A stretch of DNA of 64,000 nt from a virus. The notes below the pieces were generated by a model that worked only from the letters and a program-made list of their open reading frames with translations, was not told the origin of the DNA and searched no databases. The stretch's first letter is position 1; every line of letters begins with the position of its first letter. The DNA lies in the IMG/VR virus record IMGVR_UViG_3300045988_098562, positions 19,484-83,483 of that record. One strand, given 5' to 3'. Positions 3,037-28,591 of the stretch are shown here, piece by piece. Both the position numbers and the translations under genes were made by a program.

Positions 3037-6000
3037 ATGGAAAATAAGGAACAGACATTGGTAGAGAAATCAGGTTTCTTACCATCTACTGGATTAAGAG
3101 GGTATAATGCCGGAGTTCCTACGCGATATGAAGAAGAATCTTCTCTTATTGAGGGAGCAAAAAGAGAGATGGAGAGGATGAAAGTAGGTTCATATACTCC
3201 CCCGGTATCAGCCATAAATCCTGATGATGATTCAGAAAAAGGGTCTGATATTAGCGGAATAGATACTTCTTTTGATGTAGACACATCTTTTTCTGGACTA
3301 AAATCGGCTCTGAATGGTGGAGATGATCCAAGAAAGAAGAAAGAGGAGTCTTATAATAAGTTAAATTCCATGATAAAATCTATTCAAGATAAATCAAGGA
3401 ATACTTATTCTGGTAAACAAACGTCTTATGGTGAGGTTATAGCTGGTAATCAACAGTCATCTGCTGCTGATTTTGGTGTATTTGGTAAAGGAAGAACTAT
3501 TAAGTTAGATGAAGCATATGACTTTTTATCCGATGGGAACATCGGTCTTGCAAAGTTTAAAAGTTATATGCCAGGAAGGGATAATGAAGATTATTACGGA
3601 AGAAGGCAAACTACTTGGAATAAGGCTGTTAATGGCATAGGGAAGCTTGTCACAAAAACAGCATTATATGGTGTATCAGGAGTAGTAGGTATTATCCCGG
3701 CTGCGTATAATCTTATAAAGACTGGTACGTTATCTTCAGCATTTGACAATGATTTTACACGGACCATAAATGATATAGATGAAAGAATAAACCACTCTCT
3801 TCCTCATTATTATACAAGAGAAGAGCGTGATATGGGATTTTTGCAGAGTCTTGGAACTGCAAATTTTATTTTTAATGATGTTATTGGAAATGGTCTATCG
3901 TTTACGACAGGCGCTATTCTGTCTGCCTACCTTACAGGTGGGATGGGTGTGTCAAGTCTTGGAGCTGTTGGCGCTAAAGTAGGGATGAGAGTGGCCGGAA
4001 AGATGGCAGCGTCTAAGATTGCGGCAAGTGCTGTAAAATCCGCTTTTGGAGCGTATAGAGCAGGAGCGATGTACGGCAGGGCCATAGGCAATGTGGCCAA
4101 GGTAGGAGTAAATACGTTTGTGGGCGCCGGCTGGGAGTCTGCCGTGGAAGCTCAGTCCTTCATGAAAGACTCTGAAAGTAAATACAAGGAATATTTTAAA
4201 AATATGTATGGTCGGAATCCTAATCAGTCTGAGATGGCTGAATTTAAGAGTTCTATTTCCGATACGGCAAACAGCATATTCTTAGCTAATATGGGTATAG
4301 TTGGATTATCCAATTATCTTCTTCTGGGAAAATATCTTGGAGTAGACACTGGTTTTGCTTCTAAATACATACCTGGATTAAAGGGTGTATCAAACACATA
4401 TAGGGGATCAAAGAGTTTTGTAGATCGTTATTTGTTTGGATTAGGAACTAAGAAGGTGGCGGGTGATGCTGGAAGATTACAGACGGTAAAAGCAAATTTA
4501 TTCCAGAAATCCTTAGCTACTGTTTGGAATGTATCTAAAAGACCCATATCTGAAGGTGTATGGGAGGAAGGCATGCAAGGTGTTGCTCAGCGCATGGGGG
4601 AAGATTTTATTAGATCAAGATATGATAAGACGTATCTTGATGCTACGTCTTCTATAGTTGATTCTTTTTCTAAGGCCATAGCTGAACAATTTACAACCAA
4701 AGAAGGATTGAAAGAGATTGGCATAGGAGCCCTGATTGGTGGTTTATTTGGAGCCAGAAATGGTGCTTTTGGTTTATATGAAAGGAGAAATAAAGAGCGT
4801 ACTATTAATACTGATGTTGAGAAATTTAATAGTAATAATGCTTTTACTTCTCAATCTGTAAAAGACTCTATGCGAAATTTAGCCGAATTTAATGCTCAAA
4901 TGAATGATCCTGAATCAGATTATTATTCTAAATTTGAATTATCTGACAGAATGGGAATGTTAGAGGATACGGCTAACAATTTCAGGTCAATGGTTAAAAG
5001 CCTTGACGAAAGTGAGTTGGCTTCTGAAATGAAAGTAGATGAAGAAACTGTTAAAAAATACAAGGAAGATATTATAAAAGATTTTGATAAGAAGTTAGCC
5101 AATTATAAAAAAGCTTCTTCTTTCGCTGAGGCTGTTACTGCTGAAACATCATCCGATCTTTACCGGTCTAATGTTGCTAATGCTGTATTTAAAGGCTTGG
5201 ATGCAGAGGATATAGCAATGGAAACATCAAATGATATTGCTGATTATGTAAATGACAATAATTTGTTTGATGATATAAATACGTTTTATTCATTATCAAG
5301 TCAAGCTTTTGATACAGCTAATCAGTTAAGGGAATTGCGTAATGAGATCAATGATCTGAATGCTGAAATAGAGAGGTTGGCTACAACTCCGAGAAGAGTA
5401 GAGGACGGTAATGATACCGAAGCAGAGGCTATAAAACAAAAAACTATTAAATACGATAATCTTAATAAGGAATATAGAAGGTTGTCAGAAGATCTTCTTA
5501 GTAGTTATAAAGAAGTATTTTATTCTTTTGATCCTGGAGTATCAGCTCTTGAGTTGTTTAAATCTGAAACGATAACTGCTGAAGATATATTAAAAGCTTA
5601 TGATTCTGTTGCTTCTTTAAGCACTTATATCGAGAACAATAAGGGGAAGAAAGAAGCAGAGGATTTAAGAAAGATGGTGGTAAAATACCAGCAAGCTATT
5701 ACCCAATATAAGGTTCTACGGTCATTCATGAACTCTATGCAGGATAAGAAATTTATGAGACACGATTTTTCTTTATTCTCTAAGTTCTTAAATGATATGG
5801 TGTCATCCGATACCAAGCCTATAGAAAGTGATCGTTTTTATCAGAACCAGGAAGGAGACAATATCAGTTTAGATGAAAAAATAAATGAACTCCTGAACAA
5901 TGGTGAAATAGATTCAGATGAGGCATTTACAATGAAAGTATTTGGTCATTTAAATGATGGTATAACTCAGAAACCGAAAGAGGATATATTGTCTGATTTT

Positions 6001-9000
6001 GATTATGAGTTGGCTATGGAAGATCTTTCGTCTGCACCTATAGAGGTTAGAGAGCGTATAGTAGACAAGATATATACAGGTAATCAAGATCTTTTATCTC
6101 CAAGAGAGAAGGAGATATATGATAAATACAAGCAGGATATTGATGATTACATATCATTTCTTGGAGACAGTCCGGCTAAGATGATAAAAGATTTATCAGA
6201 TAAAGTTAAGAGACTTACTGAACATCGATCTGTGTATGAGGATAATAAAGCTATTATTGATATGGCTAAATCCAATTTAGAACCAGATCAAAGGAAGGAA
6301 CTTGATGATGCTATTTCTTCGTATGTTGATATAATGAACAGACGGGACAAAGGGGAGAAAGTTGACGAAGATAAGCTTGCCGATTCGGTATTTACCATAG
6401 AAGATCTTGGCCAAGTTGGAAATATCACTGACCTCCTTCCTTATATCGAGCAAAACAGGATTATTGATAAAGGTCGTATCTCTGAATCTACGTTAAGTAA
6501 TTTCGGGGAGGATGATACCAATATAGATTCTCTTGTAAATGAGTTAGATGAATCCGACAATACGCCGGGAGCCAACATAGATAGCGCCCAGAATCCAGAG
6601 ACGTTGATGGTAAGAAGAATATCCAATGATGGCAATGAAAGGTATGAAATTGCGGGTCTTAGAGCCGATAAATTTATATCTTCCATAAAATCATTGGTTC
6701 CTATTCAAATAAGCTCTGAAACGAACGCTAATGGCACTAAAAGGTATTCTCTTAACATAGGTGGTGAAACGGCTACTATAATTGAACTGCCTTATCATGC
6801 GAGATGGTCTATAGACAAAGAATCGGCTCGTGTTCTTAATCTTTACACAGATGTGTCTATTCAGGATGTGGGTAATTCATATTCTTTGGTTTATAAGCGT
6901 CTTGATTCAGATGAGTTGGTTCCATACAGAACGGGTGTTGGATTCGGAGAGAATGAGGTAGATAAAATAGATCAGGAAGCATTATCTTCTTTGAAAAAAG
7001 GAGATAAGGTTAATCTCGAAATAGATGTAAATGATACCTATAATCAGTCTCTTTTTGCCGAATACAATGATGCTGTTCAGTCCGGCGATAAAAAAAGAAT
7101 AGAATCTGCTGAGAATAAACTGGTGTCCAATATGGTTATCAAGGTCATGAGTGGGAACAGATTCGTTTCTGTTGTAAAAGCTGATACGGGAGGCATAGAC
7201 GGTATAAGTAAAATAAGAAGAACGGCATTTAACAAGTGGAAGAAAGATGCTGGCCGGTCGGCTACCATCAGCGTCGGCACGCATGTTGTTGCCCAGACTC
7301 TTCCCGGAAGACCGGTGTTTAACATGAAGGTAAACGGTCAAGGATATGGCCAGGTAGAAAATCTCCCTATTACCGAAAAAGGTGCTGAAAAAGTATCTGA
7401 TGTAGGATATGTATTAAATGGCAAAGTCGTGCTTAAGAACGGATCTAAATACACAGGCTTCCCATTTGCTTATTCTATATTAAATGACAAGGGAAATAAT
7501 TACAAAAATGTAAGAGTTCCGGTAGTTGTTATCAAGGGTAAAAACGGTCTTAATTATCTTTTCCCGGTTAGTCTACGTTCGGTGGAATCAGAGGAAGGGC
7601 AGAAATGGATTTCTTTTATAGATATGCTGTTTGAATCCGGTGACTCTGAATTGTTGCAGATGGGTCAAGATGACATACAAGATCTTAATGCGTATCTAAC
7701 CAAGTTAGGTCTTGATCCGGCTTCGTATCAAGTATCGTATTTGAATCCTATTTCAGGTCTTAGAAAAGCTCGTGAGGCTATAGAAGAATTATCTACAGTT
7801 CCTGATGTTGTTAAGTGGGTAGAAGATGGAAGTAGGAGCGTGAAAGACATTGTGACGTCTGAAGTAGAATCTGGAATAGATTTCGAAGGTGAGATGTTTG
7901 TTGCTCCTAAGATCAGGATTCAGTTTGGTAAATCATCTTCAAGACCTAAATCACTTATAGAGGATGTTCTTCCTTTCTCTGATGAGGGTAAGACCGTTAC
8001 TTCTAAAGAATACGTGGATGTTTATGAAGAGGAAATGCCAGAGGAAGGGGCTGTCCGGGGGACTCAGCCGGCGCCATTAGCTCAGCCGGCTCCTGCGGCA
8101 CAAGCTGCACAGTCTTTACCTGGCAAGAAGCGTACCTCCAGGAAAAACTTCTCTCTTATGTTAAACGAAATAGAATCTCATATAGAAAAAGAAGGATTGC
8201 CGCCTTATGCTAATATTTTTGATTTTATAGCAAGGAAGATTGTAGGAGGCGACTTAAGGTTTCTTCGTGAGAGGGGTAATCCTAAAAGTCTTAAGGAGGA
8301 AATGGGATTAGAACCTAAAGGAACAGTAGGTGATAAGATATCCACTCCTTCCAAGAAAGGTGGTAAGACCTTAGATGAATACGTTTCTTGGCTTCGTTCT
8401 CAAACAGATCAGGTGGTGGTTGATTATGTTGGGCCAAGATCTGACGAACAAATTATATCAGAGTTGAAAAACTTTTTGAAATATATTAATTTTGTTCCAA
8501 GTAAGGCTTTGAATTATTCTCTTAGAGTCAATGGCATGGACACCCTAAAGGAATATGGCACAAAAGAGGAAGTAGAAAAAATGGAATCTGACATCAATAA
8601 TTTGGTTTCTAAAGTTTTGCCTACGGTGGATAATAAAACTGTAGAAGATGTTTCTACTGCAATAAAATCAAACAACTTGCCTGCCATATGGAGGCCCGTG
8701 GAAAGCCTTGATATGACAAACGAGGAAAAAATAGAGTTTTTGAATAACGTAGCAGATTTCCTTAGCGGCATACCAGAGTATGATGCTGTTGTGGAGTCTA
8801 TAGAGTCAGAATCATATAATATTTTAAATGATGGAAAAGAAGGAAGTGCAGAAGGCGGTGCAGTACGCACTGAGGAAGATGGCGATAAAAAGGGAGATGG
8901 AGAAGGCAAAGGACAATCCAGAACAAATGTCGAAGTCGAAAGAAATGTCGAATTACCTGGATCTGAAGAAGGAAGAGTAGATAACTATAGGAAGAACGGA

Positions 9001-9756
9001 GATAAGTTCTCTGACATTGCTGAAGTTACTTTATGGTTACTTAGAAGGGCTGCCGGCATAACCTCTATCCCGGAAGGAGAAGAGGTTTATGTAGAGGGAG
9101 ATGAGGTTAATAGTATTATGACCGATATGGAATCAAGGTATGGTATAGACACCATCAATCACTCGCATACGACTAAGGCTATAAGGGACCTTAACGGCGT
9201 ATCAGGTTATAAAGTAGAATACGGCTTAACCTTTTTGACATACGATCCTTTTATTAGAATATCCAATCTAAGGAAAGGATCTAAGGCTGCGAAAGACGAA
9301 CCTCGTATATCCGAAGAGTCGCTTACTCACATATCAAGGGTGACAACCCCTTATTTCCTGTACGGCGGCGATGAAGCATATACATCTGTTCCGGCTAAGG
9401 TAGAACCTATACCGGAGAAGATAATGGGTCGTAATGGCATTAAATTTGGTATGAGTGTAGTCGAGTTAACCAAATTAGGGTACAAAAAAGCTGGTGGAAA
9501 CTGGATATATAAATTCTATATGAACTCAGGTGTGTATGATTTGTATAATATCAGTACCGGTGAAGCGTTTAGGGCAAAACCGGATCTTGGAGTTAAGATA
9601 AGTTCCAGCGCATTCATCCGTTCTTTATCTCAATCTGGTAGGAAAATACAAAATATAATTAGTAATATGAGCCAGGAAGAGATAGATAGGAATAAGAATC
9701 TTGTAGAAGGTTCTGATAATTCGGATTCGATAAATGAGTTAAATAAGGAGTGTTAA
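3037..9756 (+). CDS. giant 2239-aa protein, probable internal virion/ejection (cargo) protein
   Basis: Uninterrupted 6.7 kb ORF starting 4 nt after the previous stop; N-terminal Gly/Ala-rich hydrophobic stretch (GMGVSSLGAVGAKVGMRVAGKMAASKIAASAVKSAFGAYRAGAMYG) suggestive of membrane interaction; long coiled-coil regions; size typical of ejected internal proteins of large podo-like phages. Confidence 0.6.
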   Translation: MENKEQTLVEKSGFLPSTGLRGYNAGVPTRYEEESSLIEGAKREMERMKVGSYTPPVSAINPDDDSEKGSDISGIDTSFDVDTSFSGLKSALNGGDDPRKKKEESYNKLNSMIKSIQDKSRNTYSGKQTSYGEVIAGNQQSSAADFGVFGKGRTIKLDEAYDFLSDGNIGLAKFKSYMPGRDNEDYYGRRQTTWNKAVNGIGKLVTKTALYGVSGVVGIIPAAYNLIKTGTLSSAFDNDFTRTINDIDERINHSLPHYYTREERDMGFLQSLGTANFIFNDVIGNGLSFTTGAILSAYLTGGMGVSSLGAVGAKVGMRVAGKMAASKIAASAVKSAFGAYRAGAMYGRAIGNVAKVGVNTFVGAGWESAVEAQSFMKDSESKYKEYFKNMYGRNPNQSEMAEFKSSISDTANSIFLANMGIVGLSNYLLLGKYLGVDTGFASKYIPGLKGVSNTYRGSKSFVDRYLFGLGTKKVAGDAGRLQTVKANLFQKSLATVWNVSKRPISEGVWEEGMQGVAQRMGEDFIRSRYDKTYLDATSSIVDSFSKAIAEQFTTKEGLKEIGIGALIGGLFGARNGAFGLYERRNKERTINTDVEKFNSNNAFTSQSVKDSMRNLAEFNAQMNDPESDYYSKFELSDRMGMLEDTANNFRSMVKSLDESELASEMKVDEETVKKYKEDIIKDFDKKLANYKKASSFAEAVTAETSSDLYRSNVANAVFKGLDAEDIAMETSNDIADYVNDNNLFDDINTFYSLSSQAFDTANQLRELRNEINDLNAEIERLATTPRRVEDGNDTEAEAIKQKTIKYDNLNKEYRRLSEDLLSSYKEVFYSFDPGVSALELFKSETITAEDILKAYDSVASLSTYIENNKGKKEAEDLRKMVVKYQQAITQYKVLRSFMNSMQDKKFMRHDFSLFSKFLNDMVSSDTKPIESDRFYQNQEGDNISLDEKINELLNNGEIDSDEAFTMKVFGHLNDGITQKPKEDILSDFDYELAMEDLSSAPIEVRERIVDKIYTGNQDLLSPREKEIYDKYKQDIDDYISFLGDSPAKMIKDLSDKVKRLTEHRSVYEDNKAIIDMAKSNLEPDQRKELDDAISSYVDIMNRRDKGEKVDEDKLADSVFTIEDLGQVGNITDLLPYIEQNRIIDKGRISESTLSNFGEDDTNIDSLVNELDESDNTPGANIDSAQNPETLMVRRISNDGNERYEIAGLRADKFISSIKSLVPIQISSETNANGTKRYSLNIGGETATIIELPYHARWSIDKESARVLNLYTDVSIQDVGNSYSLVYKRLDSDELVPYRTGVGFGENEVDKIDQEALSSLKKGDKVNLEIDVNDTYNQSLFAEYNDAVQSGDKKRIESAENKLVSNMVIKVMSGNRFVSVVKADTGGIDGISKIRRTAFNKWKKDAGRSATISVGTHVVAQTLPGRPVFNMKVNGQGYGQVENLPITEKGAEKVSDVGYVLNGKVVLKNGSKYTGFPFAYSILNDKGNNYKNVRVPVVVIKGKNGLNYLFPVSLRSVESEEGQKWISFIDMLFESGDSELLQMGQDDIQDLNAYLTKLGLDPASYQVSYLNPISGLRKAREAIEELSTVPDVVKWVEDGSRSVKDIVTSEVESGIDFEGEMFVAPKIRIQFGKSSSRPKSLIEDVLPFSDEGKTVTSKEYVDVYEEEMPEEGAVRGTQPAPLAQPAPAAQAAQSLPGKKRTSRKNFSLMLNEIESHIEKEGLPPYANIFDFIARKIVGGDLRFLRERGNPKSLKEEMGLEPKGTVGDKISTPSKKGGKTLDEYVSWLRSQTDQVVVDYVGPRSDEQIISELKNFLKYINFVPSKALNYSLRVNGMDTLKEYGTKEEVEKMESDINNLVSKVLPTVDNKTVEDVSTAIKSNNLPAIWRPVESLDMTNEEKIEFLNNVADFLSGIPEYDAVVESIESESYNILNDGKEGSAEGGAVRTEEDGDKKGDGEGKGQSRTNVEVERNVELPGSEEGRVDNYRKNGDKFSDIAEVTLWLLRRAAGITSIPEGEEVYVEGDEVNSIMTDMESRYGIDTINHSHTTKAIRDLNGVSGYKVEYGLTFLTYDPFIRISNLRKGSKAAKDEPRISEESLTHISRVTTPYFLYGGDEAYTSVPAKVEPIPEKIMGRNGIKFGMSVVELTKLGYKKAGGNWIYKFYMNSGVYDLYNISTGEAFRAKPDLGVKISSSAFIRSLSQSGRKIQNIISNMSQEEIDRNKNLVEGSDNSDSINELNKEC

Positions 9757-10289
9757 GTATGAGAAGGAGATTTTTTAATGCTGCGGATAATTTTGTGGGA
9801 GGATGTTATAATAAGTTATCCAATGAAGATATAAAAAGGCTTGGAGGAAAAAGACCTTATGTATGTCAGTTTAATAAAATTCATATACATATAGGACCTG
9901 TATTAAAAGATCATGATTCTGATGTTAGTTACATAATGTTTAATAGTAATTGGAATTATGGTGGTTATGAATCTATGGTTTATAATCATAGCAATAATGG
10001 TATTTTTATATTAGGTGGAAACAAAATTGGTAACATAGAAGATCATATACAAGATCTAACATATTGGTACGAATATGATCCAAGCATTAATGAAAATTAT
10101 TGTTATTTTTATTATGAGGCTAATAACAGCGGAAATGCTATCAAGTTGAATGGTGAGTTTGGTGATACCAGTACTGTTTTCAACATTCCCAGCTTGGAAG
10201 TCACCACTCTTCGTGATGGCAGTTTGAGTTTTCCGGAGATTTATATAGAAGGAATTTGGGATCCGTCATTGTATAAGTCGGTTTTATAA
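9750..10289 (+). CDS. hypothetical protein, MRRRF-start paralog family (intact copy)
   Basis: ORF overlaps stop of giant gene (GTG at 9750; likely true start ATG at 9759 giving MRRRFF...); paralogous degraded copy at 27145-27559. Confidence 0.55.
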   Translation: MLSMRRRFFNAADNFVGGCYNKLSNEDIKRLGGKRPYVCQFNKIHIHIGPVLKDHDSDVSYIMFNSNWNYGGYESMVYNHSNNGIFILGGNKIGNIEDHIQDLTYWYEYDPSINENYCYFYYEANNSGNAIKLNGEFGDTSTVFNIPSLEVTTLRDGSLSFPEIYIEGIWDPSLYKSVL

Positions 10290-10315
10290 TTAACTTTGCA
10301 AAAAAGTTAATTACA

Positions 10316-19028: not shown

Positions 19029-19334
19029 ATGTGTGATAAGGAAATCGTGATATGCGCGGCCATCTGGGTGCAGGACGGCAAGAAGCGTCCCCATCAGCCC
19101 ACCAATATACCATCCGGCGCCGTGTTCTGTGGATTGAGACATTGTTCTATCATTTCTCAGTTTGCAGCTTATGGTATTGCTCATAAAAACCGCAGTGTTC
19201 AAGGATTTTTGACAAGCAAGAACCGGTTTTTAACAAGAGAGGATGCGTCTGAACTTGTTAAAAATAATAATCAGGAAATGGTAGTAGATAGGAGTGCTAT
19301 TAGGGAACAATTGTATTCAGAAGATTTATATTAA
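19029..19334 (+). CDS. hypothetical protein (101 aa)
   Basis: ORF 4 nt after previous stop. Confidence 0.5.
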   Translation: MCDKEIVICAAIWVQDGKKRPHQPTNIPSGAVFCGLRHCSIISQFAAYGIAHKNRSVQGFLTSKNRFLTREDASELVKNNNQEMVVDRSAIREQLYSEDLY

Positions 19335-19355
19335 CAACTAAAAAAACAGAATAAT

Positions 19356-19706
19356 ATGGGATTTGTAATCAAAAAGTCAATCACTTATAATATGATGGAC
19401 GGCAATCAGTTAGAGTATGTATTTGACAACATTAATTTAGATCATATCACATTTAAAGGTAATGGTAAAGAATCTTTTTCATTTAACAGAGCTCTTGTTG
19501 AAAATTTAATTGAGACATTTGATACTATGCAGGATATATACTCTGATAATTACGGGATTAAGGTTTATACCGGTAATTGCATAATTCAACTGAATGTAAA
19601 TCCAAAGAACTTAAGTGAATCCTTTTTTGACGTATATGATAGAGATGGGATGAAATTGATATATAGTATACAAAATAGTATTTTGAAAGAAATGTTTATA
19701 ATATGA
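19356..19706 (+). CDS. hypothetical protein (116 aa)
   Basis: ORF in cluster. Confidence 0.5.
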   Translation: MGFVIKKSITYNMMDGNQLEYVFDNINLDHITFKGNGKESFSFNRALVENLIETFDTMQDIYSDNYGIKVYTGNCIIQLNVNPKNLSESFFDVYDRDGMKLIYSIQNSILKEMFII

Positions 19707-20023
19707 TTACCAAGCAGGACATACAAGCAGCAGCATCGTATATTTTCCAAAGTAGTTTTGTCTCGGAGGACCAGGCAAGGAAAGCGATGGTAAGAGCTGG
19801 CAATAACGCTACCAAGATCCTCATCAAGACCTTCAGAGGAAAGTTGTTCAAGAAAGCTTTTGGAAGAGCTCGTAGAGGAAAGGATATCAGTTCTTTTGAA
19901 AGACAGGAAAAAGAAAGTGGTTTCAATTTTCTTTACAATTCTAATAATGGTAGTATGCAAAGCGGTCATGTAAAAATAGATGAAATTGGACTATTTAAAC
20001 AAATAATAAAGTCGGGTACGTAA
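19703..20023 (+). CDS. hypothetical basic protein (106 aa)
   Basis: ATGA-coupled to upstream gene. Confidence 0.45.
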   Translation: MITKQDIQAAASYIFQSSFVSEDQARKAMVRAGNNATKILIKTFRGKLFKKAFGRARRGKDISSFERQEKESGFNFLYNSNNGSMQSGHVKIDEIGLFKQIIKSGT

Positions 20024-20052
20024 GTTATCCGACTTTTTCATATATTTGTGGC

Positions 20053-20376
20053 ATGGCACGAGGTTATTATTGGATACCGCAGACAGATGAAACGTTAAAT
20101 GGCATAAGCTATTACGTGACTAAGGTAGTAGGAGATATCACGTTTGATACTAAACGAAAAAGAATAGTGTTTCAAACTACCAGGTATTTCCCAGTAGGAT
20201 CCGTATTCCATTTTACTCACAACTGCTTTAAATACGTCATAACCTGCCGGCTCCGTAAGCCGGGGCTGTGGTATGAGGCAAGGAGGGAAGACTGCGGACC
20301 TATTGGACCGGATGATGTGGAAAGGTTCGAATCTGGAAGGTTTATTCATAGAAATGGGTACAAATATAATGCATAA
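20053..20376 (+). CDS. hypothetical protein (107 aa)
   Basis: ORF followed by terminator hairpin. Confidence 0.5.
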   Translation: MARGYYWIPQTDETLNGISYYVTKVVGDITFDTKRKRIVFQTTRYFPVGSVFHFTHNCFKYVITCRLRKPGLWYEARREDCGPIGPDDVERFESGRFIHRNGYKYNA

Positions 20377-20426
20377 GCGTAACTTGACGATTTACGTCAG
20401 ATTATAATTTTTTTTCATATTATTTT

Positions 20427-20467
20427 TAAGCCATCAGACTGAGAAGTTAGATGGCTTAATTTTTTAT
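20427..20467 (+). terminator. rho-independent terminator (AAGCCATC-loop-GATGGCTT + TTTTTTAT)
   Basis: 8-bp perfect stem, 14-nt loop, T-run. Confidence 0.55.
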
Positions 20468-20517
20468 GATATGCTTGATTTTTAACTACCTTTGTCTTAT
20501 AACAAAAATGTTTTACT

Positions 20518-23500
20518 ATGACATCAACGTGTATTATTAAAAGAGATAATAAAAAGAAAGTTGTTTCTGTCTCTACCAGATCAGGGGACAGGTCTATGTT
20601 GTTTGATAAAATAGCATCTATTCCTCTTATGGAGAATAGGGAACGGGCTACTACTGTTTTTAAAACCGTATTTTCTAATAAGTTCTTAAAGGCTTTTGGT
20701 GACTGGAGAAGGAATGTACCTGTTAATAAACAGGCTTATAATAAGGTAAAATCCAACATCGGCCTTATTCCGGAATCCTATAGAGAAAGGGTGCTGGATA
20801 AGGCGTCTAAGATGAGTAACCCTGTTCTTGTGTCAAAATCAGATGCACCTTATGAAATCCAAGAATCGGGCTTTGGATTCTACAGCCAAGATCTGGGTGA
20901 TAATATTATGTTGGTGGATGCTATGGTTCCGTCAAGCATTTCCGTGCTGGAAGGACCTGGAATAGACGCCGGTCAGTATCTACAAGATGCTATATCTTCG
21001 GACTTCACTCCCGTATCTATGGTACAGGATAAGGATGCTAATTATATGGTTATAAAAGACGGTCTTAAGATATTTAGCCCAGAAGAGCTACCGGAGGCAG
21101 ATCCTAATCCTGTGGGTGTAACGTATCAGACCGGAGAGCCTCGTTTGTTTTTTATGAACGATCGTAGTCAATTATTTGAAGATTACGGAGAAGCTCTTCG
21201 TTCTGGTGGGAATGATATTAGAATAGGATTCTTATCCGGCACCGTTCAAGAATCTACCGTGGATGGCGTGGCAGACATTACATACAAGGCTGGAAAGTAT
21301 GTTCTTAATAATCCCAAGTCTTTTATACCGGTCATGACCGCGTCTGCTTCTACTTCTTTATCAACAAAAGGTGGTATAATTAACTACCTTATAAAGAAAG
21401 GTCTTTTGTCCGGATCTAAGATATTAGATCCTGAAACAAGAAGCTATTATCTTACAGGAGAAGGACATACAGGACAAATTAGACTTTTCAATTCATCCTT
21501 ATCCTACACCGAGCTCCGTAATCATTTTGGTTCCGATGTTTCCATGAACGACCAAGGTATGATAACCATAAGCTCGTTGGATAATAGTAAGGTAACTATG
21601 AGGCTCGCCACCGGAGGAACGGAAAGGGTTAGCAAAGAGCAGATAAAGAACGATCTTAAGTCAGGAAGATACAATGAATTGGATGCTAAGTACGATCATT
21701 TTGATGCGCTTGTAGTTTCATTCATATTAGAAGACAACGATCTTTATGCTGATACTAAAGCTAAGATCGTATCGGATTATAGCAGGCAGGAACGTGACCA
21801 ACGAAATTCTATTGTCGAGATACTGAAAACGCTTGGCGTTAGTGTCATAGGTATGACCGATTATATAGAGAAGTACCAAACCAAATACGGGCATGAACCT
21901 TCTGCTAAGGCATTGGCGGATATTGCCAATAACGTAATAGCAGTTGGTGAAGATGCTACTTTATCTGATTTAGTAGAAGAAACATCCCACTTCCTTGTAG
22001 AGGCATACAGAGATCAGAATGCTGTTGAGGCTGTTCTGCAAGATGTAGAAGGTACGGAAGAGTGGAACCAGTATGCAGGTCAGTATTATAATACATACGG
22101 TAAGGTATATGAAGGATCTGAGCTTGATAATGCCGTTAGGAGAGAAATTCTTGGAAAGATCCTCGCCAGGGAGATGCAGACCGGCACAGCACAGGCGCCG
22201 GTAGAGCCCACCTCCTTCCTGGGGCGCGTCCGGCAGCTTCTCTCTGGAATCGTAAGCTGGCTTAAATCAGCTTTATCAACCCAAAGACAAGATTTGAATA
22301 ACGTTATTAAAAGCATTCGTGATCTTGCCATTACTGACATAGATAAAGGATTTGACACTTCTCTGTTAAAGGATAATGACTTTACATTATACTCCCTTTC
22401 TTCTATGAACAAGAACAAGTTTCTTGAGTCTAAGATCAGATCGCTAAGAAAAACATTAAGAGACTTACGTCAGATAAGCTCTGATAGGGCTGTAACTACG
22501 TCTATGACCCTTGCTCAGCTTAAGACCATAGAAGATAAGATAAATAAAGTAGAGACCGAGATAGACAAGAATGAGATGGCGGCTGCCATGAACAGCATGA
22601 TCTCCACAGCCGAAGCTCAGGTCAGATACTTAAGTAATGTGGTGAACACCATCCTTCATGGTGATACCAAAGACGGTAAGCTTCATTTCAATACCAATGA
22701 TCGAAAGAATGTAGATATTATCAACAATCAGGTTCTTCCGATCATGAACGATCTCCGAGGATATATCCGTAACAGAAGTACCGAATTTGATGAACGTGAA
22801 AAGCAGGATTATACAAATAGGATCAATACCGTCATTGCCGACATCAATGGTATTCAGTCTGATATTAAATCAGTACAAGACCTTGATGAAAGTACGTTGC
22901 TTGATAAGTTAATGAACGAACTTCATGTGCCGGCAGATAAGGTAAAGAGAGTAAAAGAATTTTTCGACAAGGTTCAACACGATGTTTCTTGGATAAGTAG
23001 GTGGTTTGGTATATTAGAGCATTCTTCCAGTCCGTTCAATAACGCTCTTGGAGCTATGATTGCCAAAGACAATTACAATGCGATGGTGAATGCCCAGCCC
23101 GCCATATCCGACTTCCTGGCATATGCTAAAAAGCATGGTTTTAACAAATCTGAATTTGAAAAACTGCTTCAGAAAGTAGACGGCAAAACTTCTAATTACC
23201 TTCGTAGTGCTCTTGATATGGCTAAATACGATCGTAATAAGAAGCTGGCGCAGATGCGAGCGTTTGCGACTGCCATGAACATAGAGATATCAGAAGAAGA
23301 AATTGGTGATGTGGTTGACAATAACCGTAATTACGTATTTAAAAGAGAAGTAGTTGACAAGGATGGAAATACGGTTACTGAAAACGCTAAATTCAAACCA
23401 TCGTCTGATAGAGTTAATACCGATATTTTTACCATCGAGCAGGAAAAGATCTATACGGAGCAGATGGAAAAGTGGGATGCTGAAAATTCAGAATTGGAAT

Positions 23501-26500
23501 TTAGTGAAAGTTATGCCACAAGAATGGAATCCATATACAAAAAGGCTGAAGAAGAATTAGGACATCCGGTTTCTCAAACAACCAAAGAATACCTTAATGC
23601 CTTATCCCGGCAAAAACGGATATTGAGGCAGCCTTTTATTGATAGCGGTGGTAATTTTGATGAGGTTGCCTACTATAAGAGTAGTAACTACGAAGAAGAA
23701 GGACTGCTTCGTAAACAACGTAAGGAGGCAGCTTCGGAATACATATATGTAGGAACCAGGAGAGTGGAAAAAACCGGCGACCAACTTAAGATGGCCAAAG
23801 AAATACAAGCCATAAATGAAGTTTGGAGAAAAGAATCAAATAATGCCACTAATGCCGTATCAGAATCGTTTTTGCAAAAATTAAGAACGATTCAGAGCGA
23901 GTCTGGAGGAGAAGCTGCGCTGAAGACGCTTATGTTGGGGGGTCACCTGTCATTCAACGATCGGTTTTGGAATGACGTAGAATCGGAACAGTCGGCGCGT
24001 ACCGAATCAAATAACAAGGCTTCGTATCTTAAAATGGCGCATGATATCATTAGTTCTACGACAAGTGATAGAGATGCGACTGACGTGGACTCGATTGTAA
24101 AAGATATAGAAAAAAATAAGGCCATTATCAAGGAAATAATCGGAAACAATCGCGATGTGGCTGATATCGGAGAAATCAATGAAGCGACATTTACCTCATC
24201 TGAAAGAGATGCTTTTAGGGCCGCATCTGAAGCTATTGAAGCCGATTACGCTATTTTGATAGATTATGCTAAGATGGTGGGTCTTGAAGATATTGATAAG
24301 TACCTTACTAAAAGCAGTAAGGCTGAAAACGAAGTAAATCAGTCTTATTTAAATGCTCTTGCTGACTCTAAGGAAATTGAATGGCAGTTTGCACAGCGTC
24401 ATACTACTGCCAAAAAAGCCAAAAGGATTCAGGCTCTTAGAGATAAGTTATTCATGGCTCAAGATAACAGGTATATGTTTACCGTCTCTGAAACCAACTA
24501 CTTGTCAGAAAAATTGGGAATAGATAAAAAGCTAGATCGTAGAGATTTTAGGAATGCGGTTAGAGCCAAGATGTCTGACATATTTGGACACGATAACGGA
24601 GTAGCTGAAGTGAACGATATCGTTAATGAATTTGCCAGGAGCCAGGTCTTTTCGTACTATAAACGCATGGCGCCTACCGGATATGCGGCTATGATCGACA
24701 AAATCGGTCGAGGTGAGATAGATGTGGCGCAGATGGTTAAGGACGTACAAAACGGTACATCCACCCAAGATTATGGCATGGACATATCGTACCTGTCTTT
24801 CGATCCTGCAAGGGCATGGGTGGCTGAATCTGAAGCCGAAAATAGCGGCCGTAATCCTGATTATGTAAAAGATCATGGGTATGGTCATCGCATGCCTAAG
24901 AAAAGCCTGTATCGTGATGAATCGTATTTCAATGACTTTGGTATCAAGTATGATGCTGACGGTAATGAAGTTGCTACTAAAAACGTAGAGCAGTGGAATA
25001 TGATTCAAAAACTCAAGGAAATAAAAAGACAATCCCTTGATCTATACAAAGAGCAGAGTCCCAATTTGTATGCTATTCCACAGATATCAAAACAAGACAT
25101 AGAACGTATGGAAGGATTGGGTATTAACTTCAAAAATACGGTTCGTAATTTCGTATCAGATCTGTGCCTGGACAGAGTAGACGATTCTCTATATGGTAAG
25201 ACCAGGCAAGGGGAAGTATATGATCCGGAAGACAGACTTAGGTCTATACCTAAATACTACATATATGAGTTGGAGAACCAAGATGATGTATCTCACGATT
25301 TTGGCTACTCTTATTCGATGCTTATGATGCAGTCATCGTTATACAACGAAAAGCAGAAATCTATAGAGCTTGCCCAAGGACTGGAGCAGATGTTGCTGAA
25401 TAAGCAATTTGAAGGCGGTAAGAAAGCTGAAGCGACTCAAGCATATCAGATGTTTAGAGACTTCTTTAACGATCATTATTATGGCATTAGGATGAACACC
25501 AAAAAACTGACGGTAAACATCGGTGGATACACAGTAGACCTTACCAGGATAATGATGGCCGTTGAAAGATTTATGTCGGTCATGAACTTGGCACTGTCTC
25601 CGTTTGTGGCAGCTACCGGCGCCCTTACCGGCCATATCAACCTCATCATGGAATCAGCCGTAGGACAGTATATAAGCAAAGACTCCCTTAAATACGCATC
25701 GGCTGAGTTTTCACGCCTTGCGCCATCTTGTATAGCAGAAACCGGAGACATAGATAGGAAAAGCAAATTATATGTCATAGGTGAGAGAATGGGTATTTTC
25801 AACATACGAAACAGAATGTATGGTGCCGGATACAATAGAGTGGCCAGGACCTTAATGCGTTCGCCTATGTATGCTTTTATGGAAATCCTGAACTACCCTC
25901 TTGATCCGCAGGTTATGATTGCTACTATGGACAATGTTCGTTATTACAAAGGCCGGTTCTACACGTTCCAAGATTTCAAGATGGAAAAAGAACGTAATAA
26001 AGAACAGAGTACCATAAAAAGAGAATGGAATGCATTAAAAGATCGTACTTTATGGAGTATGGTAGACGTCGTGGATGGGAAGGTGGTTGTAAAGCCAGGA
26101 TCGGGTGTTACTGCCGAGGAAGTTGAAACCCAGATGGCTATAACCAGAAATCAAGTTCGTAGCTTGTCGCAGATATGTAACGGATCTTTGAATGAAGAAA
26201 ACCGAACTGCCGCATCGCGCAACTGGATAGCCAGGTTCATGACCGCCCACCGAGGATGGTTGGTGCTGGCGGCTCAACGTCTGTGGAAAAGGCGTGGCTT
26301 CAATTTCCAAACAATGCAAGAAGAGGAGGGACTGTCAATTACGTTAAAGAATATGATAGCCAAAACATTTAGCCTGGCTTCCGAGTCTGGTATGAAAAAC
26401 ATCATAGATGCCTGGAATGAAAATAAAGACAATATGAATGAGGTAGAAAAAACCAATCTCAAACGTCTCAGTGTCTATGCCGGCACGTTCCTTATCATGC

Positions 26501-26931
26501 AAGCCGTATCCATGCTTCTTGCCGGATGGCGTGATGATGATGAAAACGAAGAAAGTTGGCTTACTCAATTTGGATCCTATGTCGGATTCAGAACCATAAA
26601 CGAAATAGCTTCACAGATGCCGTTTATTATGGAGCTTAACGTGGTAGATATCATTAACGATCCGTTTGTTATGGGGCGAAAACTGAAGGATCTTACCGAT
26701 CTTAGGAATTATTCACTTGATAAAGTAACATCCGGCACATACAAAGGAGAGTCTAAGTTATTTAGGCAACTCGCCAAACAGACGTTTATCAAACAATGGT
26801 ATAATATCAAGACGCCGGAAGACGTAGCGCGCGCTTATAATTGGTGGCAGCAGACGAACAACAAGTCAATGATGTTCTTCATCGGCGCCACTCCTGATTC
26901 GGAAGGTGATGAGGATACAAGCTACAAATAG
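20518..26931 (+). CDS. giant 2137-aa protein, probable internal virion/ejection protein with C-terminal transmembrane segments
   Basis: 6.4 kb stop-free ORF; hydrophobic stretches near C-terminus (FLIMQAVSMLLAGW); no lytic transglycosylase or RNAP DxDGD motif found by eye. Confidence 0.65.
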   Translation: MTSTCIIKRDNKKKVVSVSTRSGDRSMLFDKIASIPLMENRERATTVFKTVFSNKFLKAFGDWRRNVPVNKQAYNKVKSNIGLIPESYRERVLDKASKMSNPVLVSKSDAPYEIQESGFGFYSQDLGDNIMLVDAMVPSSISVLEGPGIDAGQYLQDAISSDFTPVSMVQDKDANYMVIKDGLKIFSPEELPEADPNPVGVTYQTGEPRLFFMNDRSQLFEDYGEALRSGGNDIRIGFLSGTVQESTVDGVADITYKAGKYVLNNPKSFIPVMTASASTSLSTKGGIINYLIKKGLLSGSKILDPETRSYYLTGEGHTGQIRLFNSSLSYTELRNHFGSDVSMNDQGMITISSLDNSKVTMRLATGGTERVSKEQIKNDLKSGRYNELDAKYDHFDALVVSFILEDNDLYADTKAKIVSDYSRQERDQRNSIVEILKTLGVSVIGMTDYIEKYQTKYGHEPSAKALADIANNVIAVGEDATLSDLVEETSHFLVEAYRDQNAVEAVLQDVEGTEEWNQYAGQYYNTYGKVYEGSELDNAVRREILGKILAREMQTGTAQAPVEPTSFLGRVRQLLSGIVSWLKSALSTQRQDLNNVIKSIRDLAITDIDKGFDTSLLKDNDFTLYSLSSMNKNKFLESKIRSLRKTLRDLRQISSDRAVTTSMTLAQLKTIEDKINKVETEIDKNEMAAAMNSMISTAEAQVRYLSNVVNTILHGDTKDGKLHFNTNDRKNVDIINNQVLPIMNDLRGYIRNRSTEFDEREKQDYTNRINTVIADINGIQSDIKSVQDLDESTLLDKLMNELHVPADKVKRVKEFFDKVQHDVSWISRWFGILEHSSSPFNNALGAMIAKDNYNAMVNAQPAISDFLAYAKKHGFNKSEFEKLLQKVDGKTSNYLRSALDMAKYDRNKKLAQMRAFATAMNIEISEEEIGDVVDNNRNYVFKREVVDKDGNTVTENAKFKPSSDRVNTDIFTIEQEKIYTEQMEKWDAENSELEFSESYATRMESIYKKAEEELGHPVSQTTKEYLNALSRQKRILRQPFIDSGGNFDEVAYYKSSNYEEEGLLRKQRKEAASEYIYVGTRRVEKTGDQLKMAKEIQAINEVWRKESNNATNAVSESFLQKLRTIQSESGGEAALKTLMLGGHLSFNDRFWNDVESEQSARTESNNKASYLKMAHDIISSTTSDRDATDVDSIVKDIEKNKAIIKEIIGNNRDVADIGEINEATFTSSERDAFRAASEAIEADYAILIDYAKMVGLEDIDKYLTKSSKAENEVNQSYLNALADSKEIEWQFAQRHTTAKKAKRIQALRDKLFMAQDNRYMFTVSETNYLSEKLGIDKKLDRRDFRNAVRAKMSDIFGHDNGVAEVNDIVNEFARSQVFSYYKRMAPTGYAAMIDKIGRGEIDVAQMVKDVQNGTSTQDYGMDISYLSFDPARAWVAESEAENSGRNPDYVKDHGYGHRMPKKSLYRDESYFNDFGIKYDADGNEVATKNVEQWNMIQKLKEIKRQSLDLYKEQSPNLYAIPQISKQDIERMEGLGINFKNTVRNFVSDLCLDRVDDSLYGKTRQGEVYDPEDRLRSIPKYYIYELENQDDVSHDFGYSYSMLMMQSSLYNEKQKSIELAQGLEQMLLNKQFEGGKKAEATQAYQMFRDFFNDHYYGIRMNTKKLTVNIGGYTVDLTRIMMAVERFMSVMNLALSPFVAATGALTGHINLIMESAVGQYISKDSLKYASAEFSRLAPSCIAETGDIDRKSKLYVIGERMGIFNIRNRMYGAGYNRVARTLMRSPMYAFMEILNYPLDPQVMIATMDNVRYYKGRFYTFQDFKMEKERNKEQSTIKREWNALKDRTLWSMVDVVDGKVVVKPGSGVTAEEVETQMAITRNQVRSLSQICNGSLNEENRTAASRNWIARFMTAHRGWLVLAAQRLWKRRGFNFQTMQEEEGLSITLKNMIAKTFSLASESGMKNIIDAWNENKDNMNEVEKTNLKRLSVYAGTFLIMQAVSMLLAGWRDDDENEESWLTQFGSYVGFRTINEIASQMPFIMELNVVDIINDPFVMGRKLKDLTDLRNYSLDKVTSGTYKGESKLFRQLAKQTFIKQWYNIKTPEDVARAYNWWQQTNNKSMMFFIGATPDSEGDEDTSYK

Positions 26932-27066
26932 ACGAAGAATATCGGACTTGCATTGTTTTTGTATGATTCCAATATGCTATATTAGCATCGTCAAAGAGTA
27001 GATTGTACGTTTTTTGTTCTTACTTGAAAGATTATGTAGGTTAAATTTTTTCTGAAATTGTTTTCT

Positions 27067-27110
27067 TACCGGTTCTCAGTCAGAGATGATAGGGAACCGG
27101 TTTCTTTTAT
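27067..27110 (+). terminator. rho-independent terminator (ACCGGTTC-loop-GAACCGGT + TTCTTTTAT)
   Basis: 8-bp perfect stem followed by T-run about 140 nt after giant gene stop. Confidence 0.55.
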
Positions 27111-27144
27111 GTTGTCAATTATTGCTATCTTGCAAACAAAAATC

Positions 27145-27559
27145 ATGAGACGAAGATTTCAAATAGGGATGGGGGGTAAATCCCTCGCTTATAATCAATA
27201 AAGGCATATACATCCAACATGTAGATGGAGGATTATATACAAAAGAAAATTGGTCTAATAAAGGATATTCCAATGATCTATGCAATGGAATAGCTCTTGT
27301 AGATAAAGTGTGTTTTGTTATAGCCACCGAATATATTGGCACATTTCGTTGGGGTAAGGATGGAGAAATAGACAATATATTTGCACAAGATAGTTCTCAT
27401 ATTGGAACTATTAAAAAGGATTATTGGGGGCGTGAAAATCAGAATGCGTATCTTGAATATGATACCAGTAATACAGATTACGCTTTTAATAAAGCTAATA
27501 GCTATTTATTTAAAAATGGTCAAAATGGATATGTAGGTGGCGCCGGAGAGTTTTTTTGA
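27145..27559 (+). pseudogene. degraded paralog of gene 9750..10289 (MRRRF start, in-frame TAA after 18 codons, frame changes)
   Basis: Start ATGAGACGAAGATTT mirrors ATGAGAAGGAGATTT at 9759; downstream ORF 27308..27559 aligns with C-terminal half of the 9750 protein (LEYDTSNTDYAF..KANS..NG..GEF vs YEYDPSINENYCYF..EANNSG..NGEF) but in a different frame. Confidence 0.35.
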
Positions 27560-27762
27560 TATCATTGTATGCTAATGAAATAAACGAATGCCTTTTAATG
27601 GTAGGAGGTACGATAATGAGTAATAGAATGTGGACATCCACTCGAAATACAAAATTTTACTATTCGTGGTATTATGATATAAACATCCAAGGAGATCATT
27701 TGGATACAGGTTCAAGGGGTAGTTCACATTATGTCCGTCCTTTTACTGAATTAATTTTATGA
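27556..27762 (+). CDS. hypothetical protein (68 aa)
   Basis: Short ORF overlapping previous stop. Confidence 0.3.
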   Translation: MISLYANEINECLLMVGGTIMSNRMWTSTRNTKFYYSWYYDINIQGDHLDTGSRGSSHYVRPFTELIL

Positions 27763-27911
27763 AATTATGAGAAGAAGATTTGAAAATAACGCTAAACTAT
27801 ATGAGTATAAAATAGTTAGTAACTGTATAGGGGGGGGTAATCGTAGAAGGAAAGAAAGTAGGCACCATTCCACAGGGCGGGCAATTTATCTTTCTGTCTA
27901 AAAAAGAACGG

Positions 27912-28502
27912 TTGGATTCCATAAGTGTCCAAGGCGGTGTTCCAATGGAAGATAGGCAAGAGATCGATAATAGGGTTGATACGACAGAGGAATTGTTTGA
28001 ACAGGATTCGGTGGCTCTTGCTATTGCTTTAACAACCTCTCCTTATTATGGATTTAGAGTAAGTGTGATAGCACCTGATGGGTTTACGCTAAGAACAACC
28101 AATAGGATTAATAGAACCTTTTTAATAACAAGCTTTACTCCACCTGCTGCTATATACGGTGTAAACTTTGGTGATCCTATTGTCCTTAATTATGATAGTT
28201 ACCAATATGAGATGCCAGACCTTGTAATTGATGGACCTCATGATAGAATAGTTAGGGCAGATCCTAATCTTACTTGGGTTGTGAGATGTACAGACGCCGA
28301 CTTTACACCTTTGCCATATCCAGAATCATGGTCTGGCCAAGGTTTAAATTCTATGTTCTTATCAGAAATGAAACGTCTTGCTCCTGGTGATCATCATGTA
28401 TCATATACAGCTTATATTAATTTGGACTTGATAGATGATGGCGGAAGTAAAGTTCATACTGAATATCTGATATTAAAAAAAACACTTAATTTTACGATAT
28501 GA
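27912..28502 (+). CDS. hypothetical protein (196 aa); preceded in frame by a third MRRRF-start mini-ORF (27767-27901) ending in TAA
   Basis: ORF track; last + strand gene before convergence point. Confidence 0.5.
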   Translation: MDSISVQGGVPMEDRQEIDNRVDTTEELFEQDSVALAIALTTSPYYGFRVSVIAPDGFTLRTTNRINRTFLITSFTPPAAIYGVNFGDPIVLNYDSYQYEMPDLVIDGPHDRIVRADPNLTWVVRCTDADFTPLPYPESWSGQGLNSMFLSEMKRLAPGDHHVSYTAYINLDLIDDGGSKVHTEYLILKKTLNFTI

Positions 28503-28503
28503 C

Positions 28504-28546
28504 AACAGTCCCCAACCGTACGCCTATTGTATGGTTGGGGACTGTT
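28504..28546. terminator. bidirectional terminator: perfect 13-bp inverted repeat ACAGTCCCCAACC / GGTTGGGGACTGT between convergent gene blocks
   Basis: Perfect inverted repeat with 15-nt loop exactly between + gene end (28502) and - gene end (28592). Confidence 0.55.
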
Positions 28547-28591
28547 GTAGTTACCATCTTTTCTTGTATAAGCAGAACATGAAATAAGTTT

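Follow-up and report, generated by a model that had tools for sequence, protein, structure and literature searches.

Hypermutable polyG tracts are known in Campylobacter phages (Fletchervirus) (Sorensen et al. 2021, Cell Rep 35:109214, cited in PMC12823448 and PMC10877375). As the citing papers present them, these tracts lie inside genes, host-recognition genes included, and slip in length, which produces ON/OFF subpopulations. A comparable arrangement is described here in a viral stretch of 64,000 nt, i.e., positions 19,484 to 83,483 of IMG/VR record IMGVR_UViG_3300045988_098562 (hereafter the window). Three genes of the window open with the same peptide, MRRRF, and were named A (at 9759), B (at 27145), and C (at 27767). 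It is probable that B and C are intact genes put out of frame by slippage, i.e., by contingency-type on/off switching of accessory genes, and not by decay. An evolved switch is best supported for C, and the runs of A and B are shorter and vary less.

The poly-G tracts of Fletchervirus and the runs reported here differ in two respects. The present genes belong to Crassvirales with a presumed Bacteroidales host, in uncultured gut populations known from sequences alone. In addition, the run is placed at a conserved Gly-Gly turn of a common N-terminal domain and is paired with cassette exchange behind MRRRF.

Contingency loci were also reported in phages T2 and T4, e.g., A-runs in agt and rIIA (Gomez, Barrick and Waters 2025 preprint, PMC12633550). 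In that study, homopolymers of at least 6 nt in open reading frames (ORFs) frameshifted reversibly at about 1000 times the rate of point-mutation reversion, which the authors read as bet-hedging (PMC12633550). The loci are homopolymer runs in phage ORFs, as here. However, they were demonstrated in cultured phages, with read-level data and reversion tests, whereas the present runs were recognized by polymorphism between metagenomes, and the OFF state makes up about 50% of natural alleles here versus 1e-4 to 1e-3 of reads in T2/T4. In bacteria, phase variation by simple sequence repeats (SSRs) is found in the poly-G of Campylobacter capsular polysaccharide and lipooligosaccharide (CPS/LOS) genes and in Neisseria hmbR/hpuAB (PMC3786947, PMC10877375). 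The likeness lies in a 5'-proximal homopolymer inside the ORF that sets the frame, in the intact bodies of OFF alleles, and in a state unlinked to phylogeny. Unlike the bacterial SSRs, the element here is viral, and slippage would depend on the phage replisome.

Within the crAss-like phages, a diversity-generating retroelement (DGR) acts on the receptor-binding protein of crAssE-Sib and other members (PMC11054128, PMC12386605). The DGR and the present runs share the lineage and the presumed purpose of diversifying host-interaction proteins, but the DGR rewrites codons via reverse transcription and the runs would only toggle whole genes. The internal proteins of T4 carry a conserved N-terminal capsid-targeting sequence on polymorphic cassettes. 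They resemble the present genes as a short N-terminal tag on unrelated, exchangeable small virion-associated proteins, which is an analogy only. The words frameshift and homopolymer are absent from the crAssE-Sib paper (PMC11054128), and the literature on crAss-like phages yielded no report of homopolymer switching, only DGR-based and polymerase-swap mechanisms. The type of system is already known. What would be new is its occurrence in a gut crAss-like lineage, the run in a conserved domain turn, and the tie to cassette exchange.

Run-length alleles of genes B, C and A

The only match to the window in the phage collection was OR575929 ('phage csAssE-Sib', 151 kb, human gut). This genome was published as crAssE-Sib, an Epsilon crAss-like phage of the proposed genus Epsilonunovirus (PMC11054128). 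Judged by this match, the window is assigned to an Epsilon crAss-like phage, a relative of crAssE-Sib.

The 15-nt start ATGAGAMGARGATTT was found exactly three times in the 64 kb, at 9759, 27145, and 27767, all on the plus strand and with one mismatch in the copy at 9759. An earlier note on this DNA, made from its letters, had drawn attention to this start. The triple occurrence is not random, i.e., dinucleotide shuffles expect 0.07 copies and none of 100 shuffles reached three. No further ORF opening with MRR[RK] was present on either strand of the window. The three starts vary at synonymous positions (AGA/AGG/CGA), and no similarity was seen upstream of the ATG. Because of these codon differences and the dissimilar upstream DNA, the conserved unit is the peptide MRRRF and not a nucleotide signal.

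Gene B and its two runs are as follows.

27145..27762, plus strand: gene B, 205 aa if in frame, OFF in the window via two run-length changes
27171..27176, plus strand: G6 run of B, 26 nt after the ATG, in-frame lengths G5 and G8
27551..27557, plus strand: T7 run of B, in-frame length T8; T7 gives a 137-aa product ending ...GEFF

The start frame of B halts after 18 codons and the gene has two frame shifts, as the earlier note had read. Three fragments are therefore visible in the window, i.e., 27145..27201 (18 codons), 27308..27559 (83 codons, another frame), and 27556..27762 (68 codons, the start frame again). The end of the gene had been placed at 27559. The true end is 27762, and the last fragment supplies the final 68 codons. 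At the same position, crAssE-Sib encodes the intact 205-aa protein WOZ57324, to which B is 99.5% identical. Over 618 nt, the two differ by G6 versus G5, T7 versus T8, and three substitutions, and by nothing else. After correction of both runs, the translation of B differs from WOZ57324 by 1 residue. As run indels and substitutions are the sole differences, the three ORFs are one gene in three pieces.

Among 83 B alleles of unique context, the G run was G5 in 59, G6 in 13, G4 in 3, G8 in 3, G9 in 4, and G10 in 1. The T run was T8 in 59 of 73 alleles, with T7 and T9 in seven each. Both lengths also occurred on G5 backgrounds, five times each. B was full length in 43 of 80 unique alleles, and most of the others had changes of the G or T run only. 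The genotypes of these 80 were G5T8 (42), G6T8 (11), G5T7 (5), G5T9 (5), G9T8 (4), G8T8 (3, in frame with 206 aa), and G4T8 (2). Double mutants were rare (3/80), the G6T7 of the window among them.

Two side observations concern the start and the runs of B. The largest B cluster (P0121, 3360 members) begins with MQKKNEKKISNRGG... rather than MRRRFQIGMG..., i.e., from an upstream ATG in another frame that reads across the MRRRF codons into the body. Such an alternative upstream start may rescue some run states of B. A B-like gene of a divergent relative (L245, 1890-2496) has an interrupted 5' run (GGGGGAGGGG) and is split at a T9 (2122) that is lacking in B of the window.

Gene C was read by three-frame translation.

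27767..28502, plus strand: gene C, 245 aa if in frame, OFF in the window
27830..27837, plus strand: G8 run of C, 63 nt past the ATG, at the codons for the Gly-Gly-Gly turn in the N-terminal domain, in-frame length G10

In the window, C consists of a start-frame ORF of 44 codons (27767..27901) and a body whose frame 0 stays open between the run and 28502. The stop codon of the short ORF had been read as lying in frame with the following 196-aa ORF. This is not correct, as 27767 is in frame 2 and 27912 in frame 0. The stop-codon readthrough that had been considered for this ORF pair also falls away, since the frames differ and the two parts are separated by a frameshift inside the G8 run. In related IMG/VR contigs, in-frame C has 245 aa, begins with MRRRFENNAKLYEYKIVSNCIGGGVIVEGKKVGTIP..., and carries a G10 run. 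In the protein database, two clusters (741 and 2677 members) represent the 245-aa form, and 221-227-aa forms from out-of-frame alleles are also present. B and C in the window are disrupted versions of genes that are full length and intact in relatives.

The survey of C covered 71 unique alleles from related contigs, of which 31 were ON and 40 OFF. G10 was ON in 21 alleles, G9 was OFF in 25, and G8, the state of the window, was OFF in 14. The single G11 allele was ON, since a base past the run was also altered. The remaining 10 alleles comprised four of G9 that were ON, with an altered base at or beside the run restoring the frame, and six whose longest run was 5-7 G (5 ON, 1 OFF). The interrupted 10-nt runs inspected one by one, i.e., GGGGGTGGGG, GGGGGGAGGG, GGGGGGGAGG, and G9A, were all in frame. 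After the run, the body stayed open for at least 220 codons in 38 of the 40 OFF alleles. The nearest-neighbour allele shared the ON/OFF state in 39 of 69 cases, with a random expectation of 50.5%, and the run length differed in 47 of 74 allele pairs separated by at most 3 nt in 645 nt. The run length of C is almost independent of the phylogeny of its body. In 58 loci, the states of B and C combined freely (ON/ON 17, ON/OFF 17, OFF/ON 8, OFF/OFF 16), from which it follows that neither gene is required for persistence.

Gene A lies apart from B and C and is intact in the window, as had been noted.

9759..10289, plus strand: gene A of the MRRRFF type, 176 aa by translation, in frame (ON) in the window
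9771..9776, plus strand: T6 run of A, codons 5-6 (Phe-Phe)

The T run was T6 in 43 of 48 unique A alleles, T7 in four, and T5 in one. T7 or T5 truncates A after 6 or more codons in the relatives. Coding A6, A7, T6, and G4 runs near A had no variant each. The states of the window are thus A ON, B OFF twice over (G6 and T7), and C OFF (G8, two short of G10).

As in contingency loci, a run inside the ORF sets the frame in A, B, and C, and repair of its length restores full-length proteins. The OFF alleles are otherwise intact in C (38/40) and in most cases of B, and the G run of C is kept across divergent homologues. As for the marks of a pseudogene, C has no extra lesions or nonsense codons, B and A have some lesions outside runs, and B of the window has two lesions, both in runs.

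Conservation, controls and competing explanations

GGG is the rarest Gly codon in 24 large ORFs of the window (11.3%), and GGG-GGG was used in none of 60 Gly-Gly pairs. Nevertheless, G10 was found at the identical turn position in homologues that are 56% identical (L243, L245). In a sister cassette beginning MRRRYENDI, the same turn is coded GGC GGA without a run, and this gene is mostly intact at 242 aa. A DNA pattern scan for S-N-C-x followed by at least nine G detected only this lineage and 6 chance matches in high-GC phages.

A further contig, L246 (Logan SRR33454295, 17 kb), is of crAss type and carries a CrAss_Ring_2 gene and an OrfB_IS605/Cas12f-like TnpB gene. Two genes of the C domain family are located on its minus strand with G11 (2394-2404) and G10 (5563-5572) at the homologous Gly turn, both out of frame, and a third family member has G5 and is intact. 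This comparison suggests that the run-in-turn design reaches beyond the Epsilon lineage.

Selection on C was analyzed in a codon alignment of 69 alleles, from which two broken-body alleles were excluded. In the first 40 body codons, i.e., the rest of the N-terminal domain, the ratio of nonsynonymous to synonymous changes (dN/dS) was 0.34, with 19 synonymous changes versus 8.9 expected (p=3e-4). In codons 41-221, dN/dS was 1.43, with 35 synonymous changes versus 49.9 expected (p=0.012). Nonsense variants were absent, whereas 6.3 were expected (P=0.002). This pattern fits a conserved anchoring domain with a diversifying distal part, not a pseudogene.

Other runs of the same loci served as controls. 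Coding A6, A7, A8, T6, G4, G5, and C4 runs had 0-2 non-modal alleles among 8-71. Only three G or C runs of at least six are present in the 64-kb window, two of which are the 5'-proximal runs of B and C. The third, G6 at 23937 in the giant gene upstream of B, was G6 in 18 of 19 loci. Within B itself, a second G5 located 250 nt downstream (27426-27430) varied in 2 of 70 alleles, whereas the 5' G5 varied in 24 of 83, i.e., 12 times more often. Non-modal alleles made up more than half of 71 for C, 24/83 for the G run of B, 14/73 for its T run, and 5/48 for A. As the control runs hardly vary, the variation of the frame-setting runs is not general assembly noise.

The switching proposed here would work as follows. 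A, B, and C are three unrelated small accessory genes, each behind a giant virion structural gene and each opening with MRRRF. Their frames are set by the T6 at codons 5-6 in A, the G5 and the internal T8 in B, and the G10 in C. Polymerase slippage would change these lengths far more often than ordinary sequence changes occur. Because such frame-setting runs are prone to slippage, natural populations would be mixtures of ON and OFF alleles for each gene, i.e., phase variation. Switching would probably be reversible within a lineage. The proteins may be virion-associated host-interaction modules, and their switching may be bet-hedging, e.g., against variable Bacteroidales surfaces or defences.

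Several points weigh against this proposal. The virion or host-interaction role is drawn only from where the genes lie, from weak homology of PEGA/TcaA-like and BACON-associated kind, and from the pattern of selection, and structure prediction was usable for residues 7-62 of C alone. Roughly 8 of the 80 B alleles and 6 of the 55 A loci had lesions outside the runs, so some true decay of these dispensable genes occurs. Relaxed constraint would likewise agree with the dN/dS around or above 1 in the body of C, and the two broken-body alleles were left out of that analysis. The lengths of the C run are skewed to contraction, with G9 and G8 far commoner than G11, and either deletion bias or systematic under-calling could be the source. 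The genomes hold no control run of G8-G10, so the short-read consensus error at G9/G10 is not directly measurable. All allele data are assembled consensus sequences compared between metagenomes, not reads within one sample.

Under neutral decay, A, B, and C would be dispensable genes under relaxed selection, with the runs merely as their most mutable sites and without an evolved or reversible switch. It agrees with the occurrence of all four B/C combinations (OFF/OFF in 16 of 58), with the lesions of A and B outside runs and the two lesions of B in the window, with the overall dN/dS close to 1 in the C body, and with the short and unremarkable lengths of T6, G5, and T8. However, a second lesion is lacking in 38 of the 40 OFF alleles of C, and nonsense codons are missing from the bodies. 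An ON fraction of about 45% that is unlinked to phylogeny needs frequent back-switching. In addition, G10 is kept at 56% identity despite the rarity of GGG and the existence of the non-slippery GGC GGA cassette, purifying selection acts on the N-terminal domain of C, and the 5' G5 of B is far more variable than its equal downstream. Decay is therefore considered unlikely as the general explanation, and the progressive decay proposed in the earlier note was not supported, as the lesions are changes of homopolymer length and, in C, the OFF bodies stay open and the run state is unlinked to the allele tree. A sequencing or assembly artefact, in which the run differences of the window and the public contigs are miscalls and all genes are intact, is very unlikely. 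Every lesion of B and C in the window is indeed in a homopolymer, and runs of G8-G10 are difficult on every sequencing platform. However, the ORF map of the window is dense and intact, with two ORFs above 2100 codons, control runs as long as A8 and G6 hardly vary in the same contigs, and the G5/G6 and T6/T7 differences are well under the length at which short-read consensus fails. The interrupted C runs, which are not error-prone, were in frame in every case inspected, and protein forms derived from frameshifts make large clusters from many independent assemblies, e.g., the 152-aa B fragment with 1878 members.

Slippage during expression, i.e., programmed ribosomal frameshifting or transcriptional slippage, could in principle yield full-length B and C from out-of-frame alleles, so that the genes are always expressed. 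A run of 8-10 G could plausibly let RNA polymerase slip or tRNA-Gly re-pair, and the bodies stay open in OFF alleles. But real recoding sites are fixed in length with frames that are always offset, whereas in-frame alleles account for 31/71 of C and 43/80 of B here, and the OFF alleles fall in both alternative frames (G9 and G8). A conserved stimulatory structure 3' of the runs was not noticed either, although no search aimed at one was made. Recoding of this kind is very improbable; slippage could add leakiness, yet it is unnecessary to explain the data. The last explanation, that of the earlier note, takes the MRRRF genes as paralogs by duplication with the copies behind the second giant gene decaying, or the short MRRRF ORFs as regulatory leader peptides. 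The repeated start (three copies versus 0.07 expected) and the position of short ORFs directly upstream of longer ones speak for it. However, the bodies of A, B, and C are unrelated. Similarity by BLASTP is confined to residues 1-9, the hidden Markov model (HMM) of the N-terminal domain matches A and B over MRRRF only, and without the first six residues the observed Smith-Waterman score was reached in 204 (A/B), 153 (A/C), and 594 (B/C) of 1000 shuffles. The alignment of 27308..27559 with the C-terminal half of A, one of the grounds given for duplication, had a BLASTP E-value of 17. A similarity limited to the first 15 nt and compositional only had been named as the result that would speak against duplication; the first part is essentially true for A, B, and C, and the second is not, as the codons differ synonymously. 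With regard to leader peptides, the length of the mini-ORF follows the run allele (seven lengths, 10-63 codons), the identical start heads the full-length proteins of the ON alleles in relatives, and the third ORF pair is in different frames. Duplication with decay and leader peptides are both scarcely credible.

The MRRRF tag, its cassettes and the neighbouring region

The proposed slippage switching of B and C is accompanied by an exchange of gene bodies. The first 60 or so residues of C follow the pattern MRRR..Y.Y.I.SNC.GG.V.VD...VG.I...G and head proteins with many differing bodies. A profile search in 1.84 billion representative proteins gave only 44 relatives. The domain also occurs as internal repeats in proteins of 650-1270 aa with BACON domains and sub-threshold PEGA matches. 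A, B, and the C-type cassette of crAssE-Sib are without the domain and have only the MRRRF(EN) tag in common. That cassette (WOZ57325, 149 aa) occupies the C position in crAssE-Sib, where homology to the window ends 22 nt into the gene, right after MRRRFEN. Behind giant gene 1, two alternative cassettes were seen in 80 related loci, i.e., MRRRFF in 55 and the unrelated MRRRYE (192 aa, as in crAssE-Sib) in about 20.

In the AlphaFold2 model of C, residues 7-62 were confident and all-beta, with the Gly turn between two strands, and the remainder was unreliable. A Foldseek comparison of this part with PDB structures found no match below E=0.2. Neither Pfam, PHROGs, nor NCBIfam assigned a significant family to A, B, C, or the two cassettes of crAssE-Sib. 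For a PEGA-like small beta-sandwich domain (PF08308 or PF22820), all Pfam matches among 16 domain members were below the gathering score, i.e., TcaA_3rd_4th in 6/16 with a best E=1e-3, and PEGA in 3/16. The B model was unusable (mean predicted local distance difference test score, pLDDT, 29), and a PDB sequence search with a B profile gave no match. A DUF1566-like or lectin-like C-terminus of B had been suspected; it was supported by no tool and was dropped. Residues 69-93 of A (9963-10037), YESMVYNHSNNGIFILGGNKIGNI, resemble the motif YEYKIVSNCIGGGVIVEGKKVGTI of the C domain, which was not significant (153/1000 shuffles, HMM E about 0.3). This segment may be a degenerate internal copy of the domain.

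Chimeric genes were also observed. In L123 and L127 (IMG/VR contigs 129625 and 114765), the MRRRFQIGMG start and G run of B are fused directly to the body of C, and the B body was deleted by recombination across the common GGGGGTAA. P0183 and P0184 are fusions among the crAssE-type cassette, B, and C. These chimeras are evidence of recombination close to, or at, the tag and the runs. The MRRRF tag is best described as a protein-level N-terminal signature of exchangeable cassettes that also marks the recombination boundary between them. It is quite possible that the genes represent a crAss-type virion accessory family with a conserved poly-G switch in the Gly-Gly turn of a docking domain and with unrelated C-terminal modules recombining behind an MRRR tag.

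The features that surround the three genes are listed below.

3037..9756, plus strand: giant gene 1, 2239 aa, phrog_32390 (E=3e-67), crAssE-Sib homologue annotated as structural protein
20518..26931, plus strand: giant gene 2, 2137 aa, phrog_37651 'virion structural protein' (E=7.5e-78), structural protein in the crAssE-Sib annotation
27068..27101, plus strand: inverted repeat ACCGGTTC...GAACCGGT, then TTTCTTTT, between giant gene 2 and B, terminator-like by eye
28503..28549, no strand assigned: long hairpin directly 3' of C, where the plus- and minus-strand gene blocks converge

The start of A lies 2 nt past the stop of giant gene 1, and B and C are downstream of giant gene 2. The common start does characterize genes that lie directly behind the two giant structural genes. 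Virion RNA polymerase was considered for the giant ORFs; the D.DGD motif is absent from both, so this function is not assignable from the letters. The inverted repeat at 27068-27101 is identical in crAssE-Sib and was missed by a consensus terminator scan, for which its loop is too long. Upstream of it, two intergenic T6 runs (27010-27015 and 27046-27051) ranged from T5 to T9, with variation in 19/81 and 12/74 related alleles. They could lie in DNA free of constraint, or in a promoter or terminator region of B and C that responds to run length. The hairpin at 28503-28549 is kept in crAssE-Sib despite the different C cassette there, and the GC skew flips sign at this point. The half of the window with minus-strand genes codes for helicases, exonucleases, and a methyltransferase, and no tRNA genes were found across the window.

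Three other regions were recorded. A 217-aa ORF (13281-13934) combines an AntA/AntB antirepressor N-terminus with a T5orf172/GIY-YIG-like C-terminus, and matches antirepressor genes of crAssE-Sib that were discussed as hints of a temperate lifestyle. The region 14000-16700 has a G+C of 0.45 versus about 0.38, numerous overlapping ORFs on both strands, and a 354-aa homologue of the crAssE-Sib 'spike protein/glycoprotein' (phrog_16490). No DGR-type direct repeat (template and variable repeat, TR/VR) was detected in 13900-17600. A stretch of about 2.6 kb (60300-62870) lacks ORFs of at least 90 aa and tRNAs, and contains several A/T runs of 8-9 bases.

Consequences for crAss-like phages

In the human gut, few viruses are as abundant as the crAss-like phages, and how they track hosts with varying surfaces is still being worked out. 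Beside the proposed DGRs and polymerase swapping, the data point to a third and cheaper mechanism in the Epsilon group, i.e., on/off switching of accessory genes by slippage. The proposed switching is made visible by a share of about 50% OFF alleles in many independent metagenomes. There is a practical consequence as well, as gene callers split or truncate such genes, which leads to mis-annotation in gut-phage catalogues, e.g., the fragment clusters of 152 aa and 221-227 aa with thousands of members. If switching is true, up to eight ON/OFF combinations of host-interaction modules would coexist as a standing mixture in populations of these phages. Such mixtures would be a phage counterpart of the phase-variable surfaces of Bacteroidales, alongside the DGR of the lineage.

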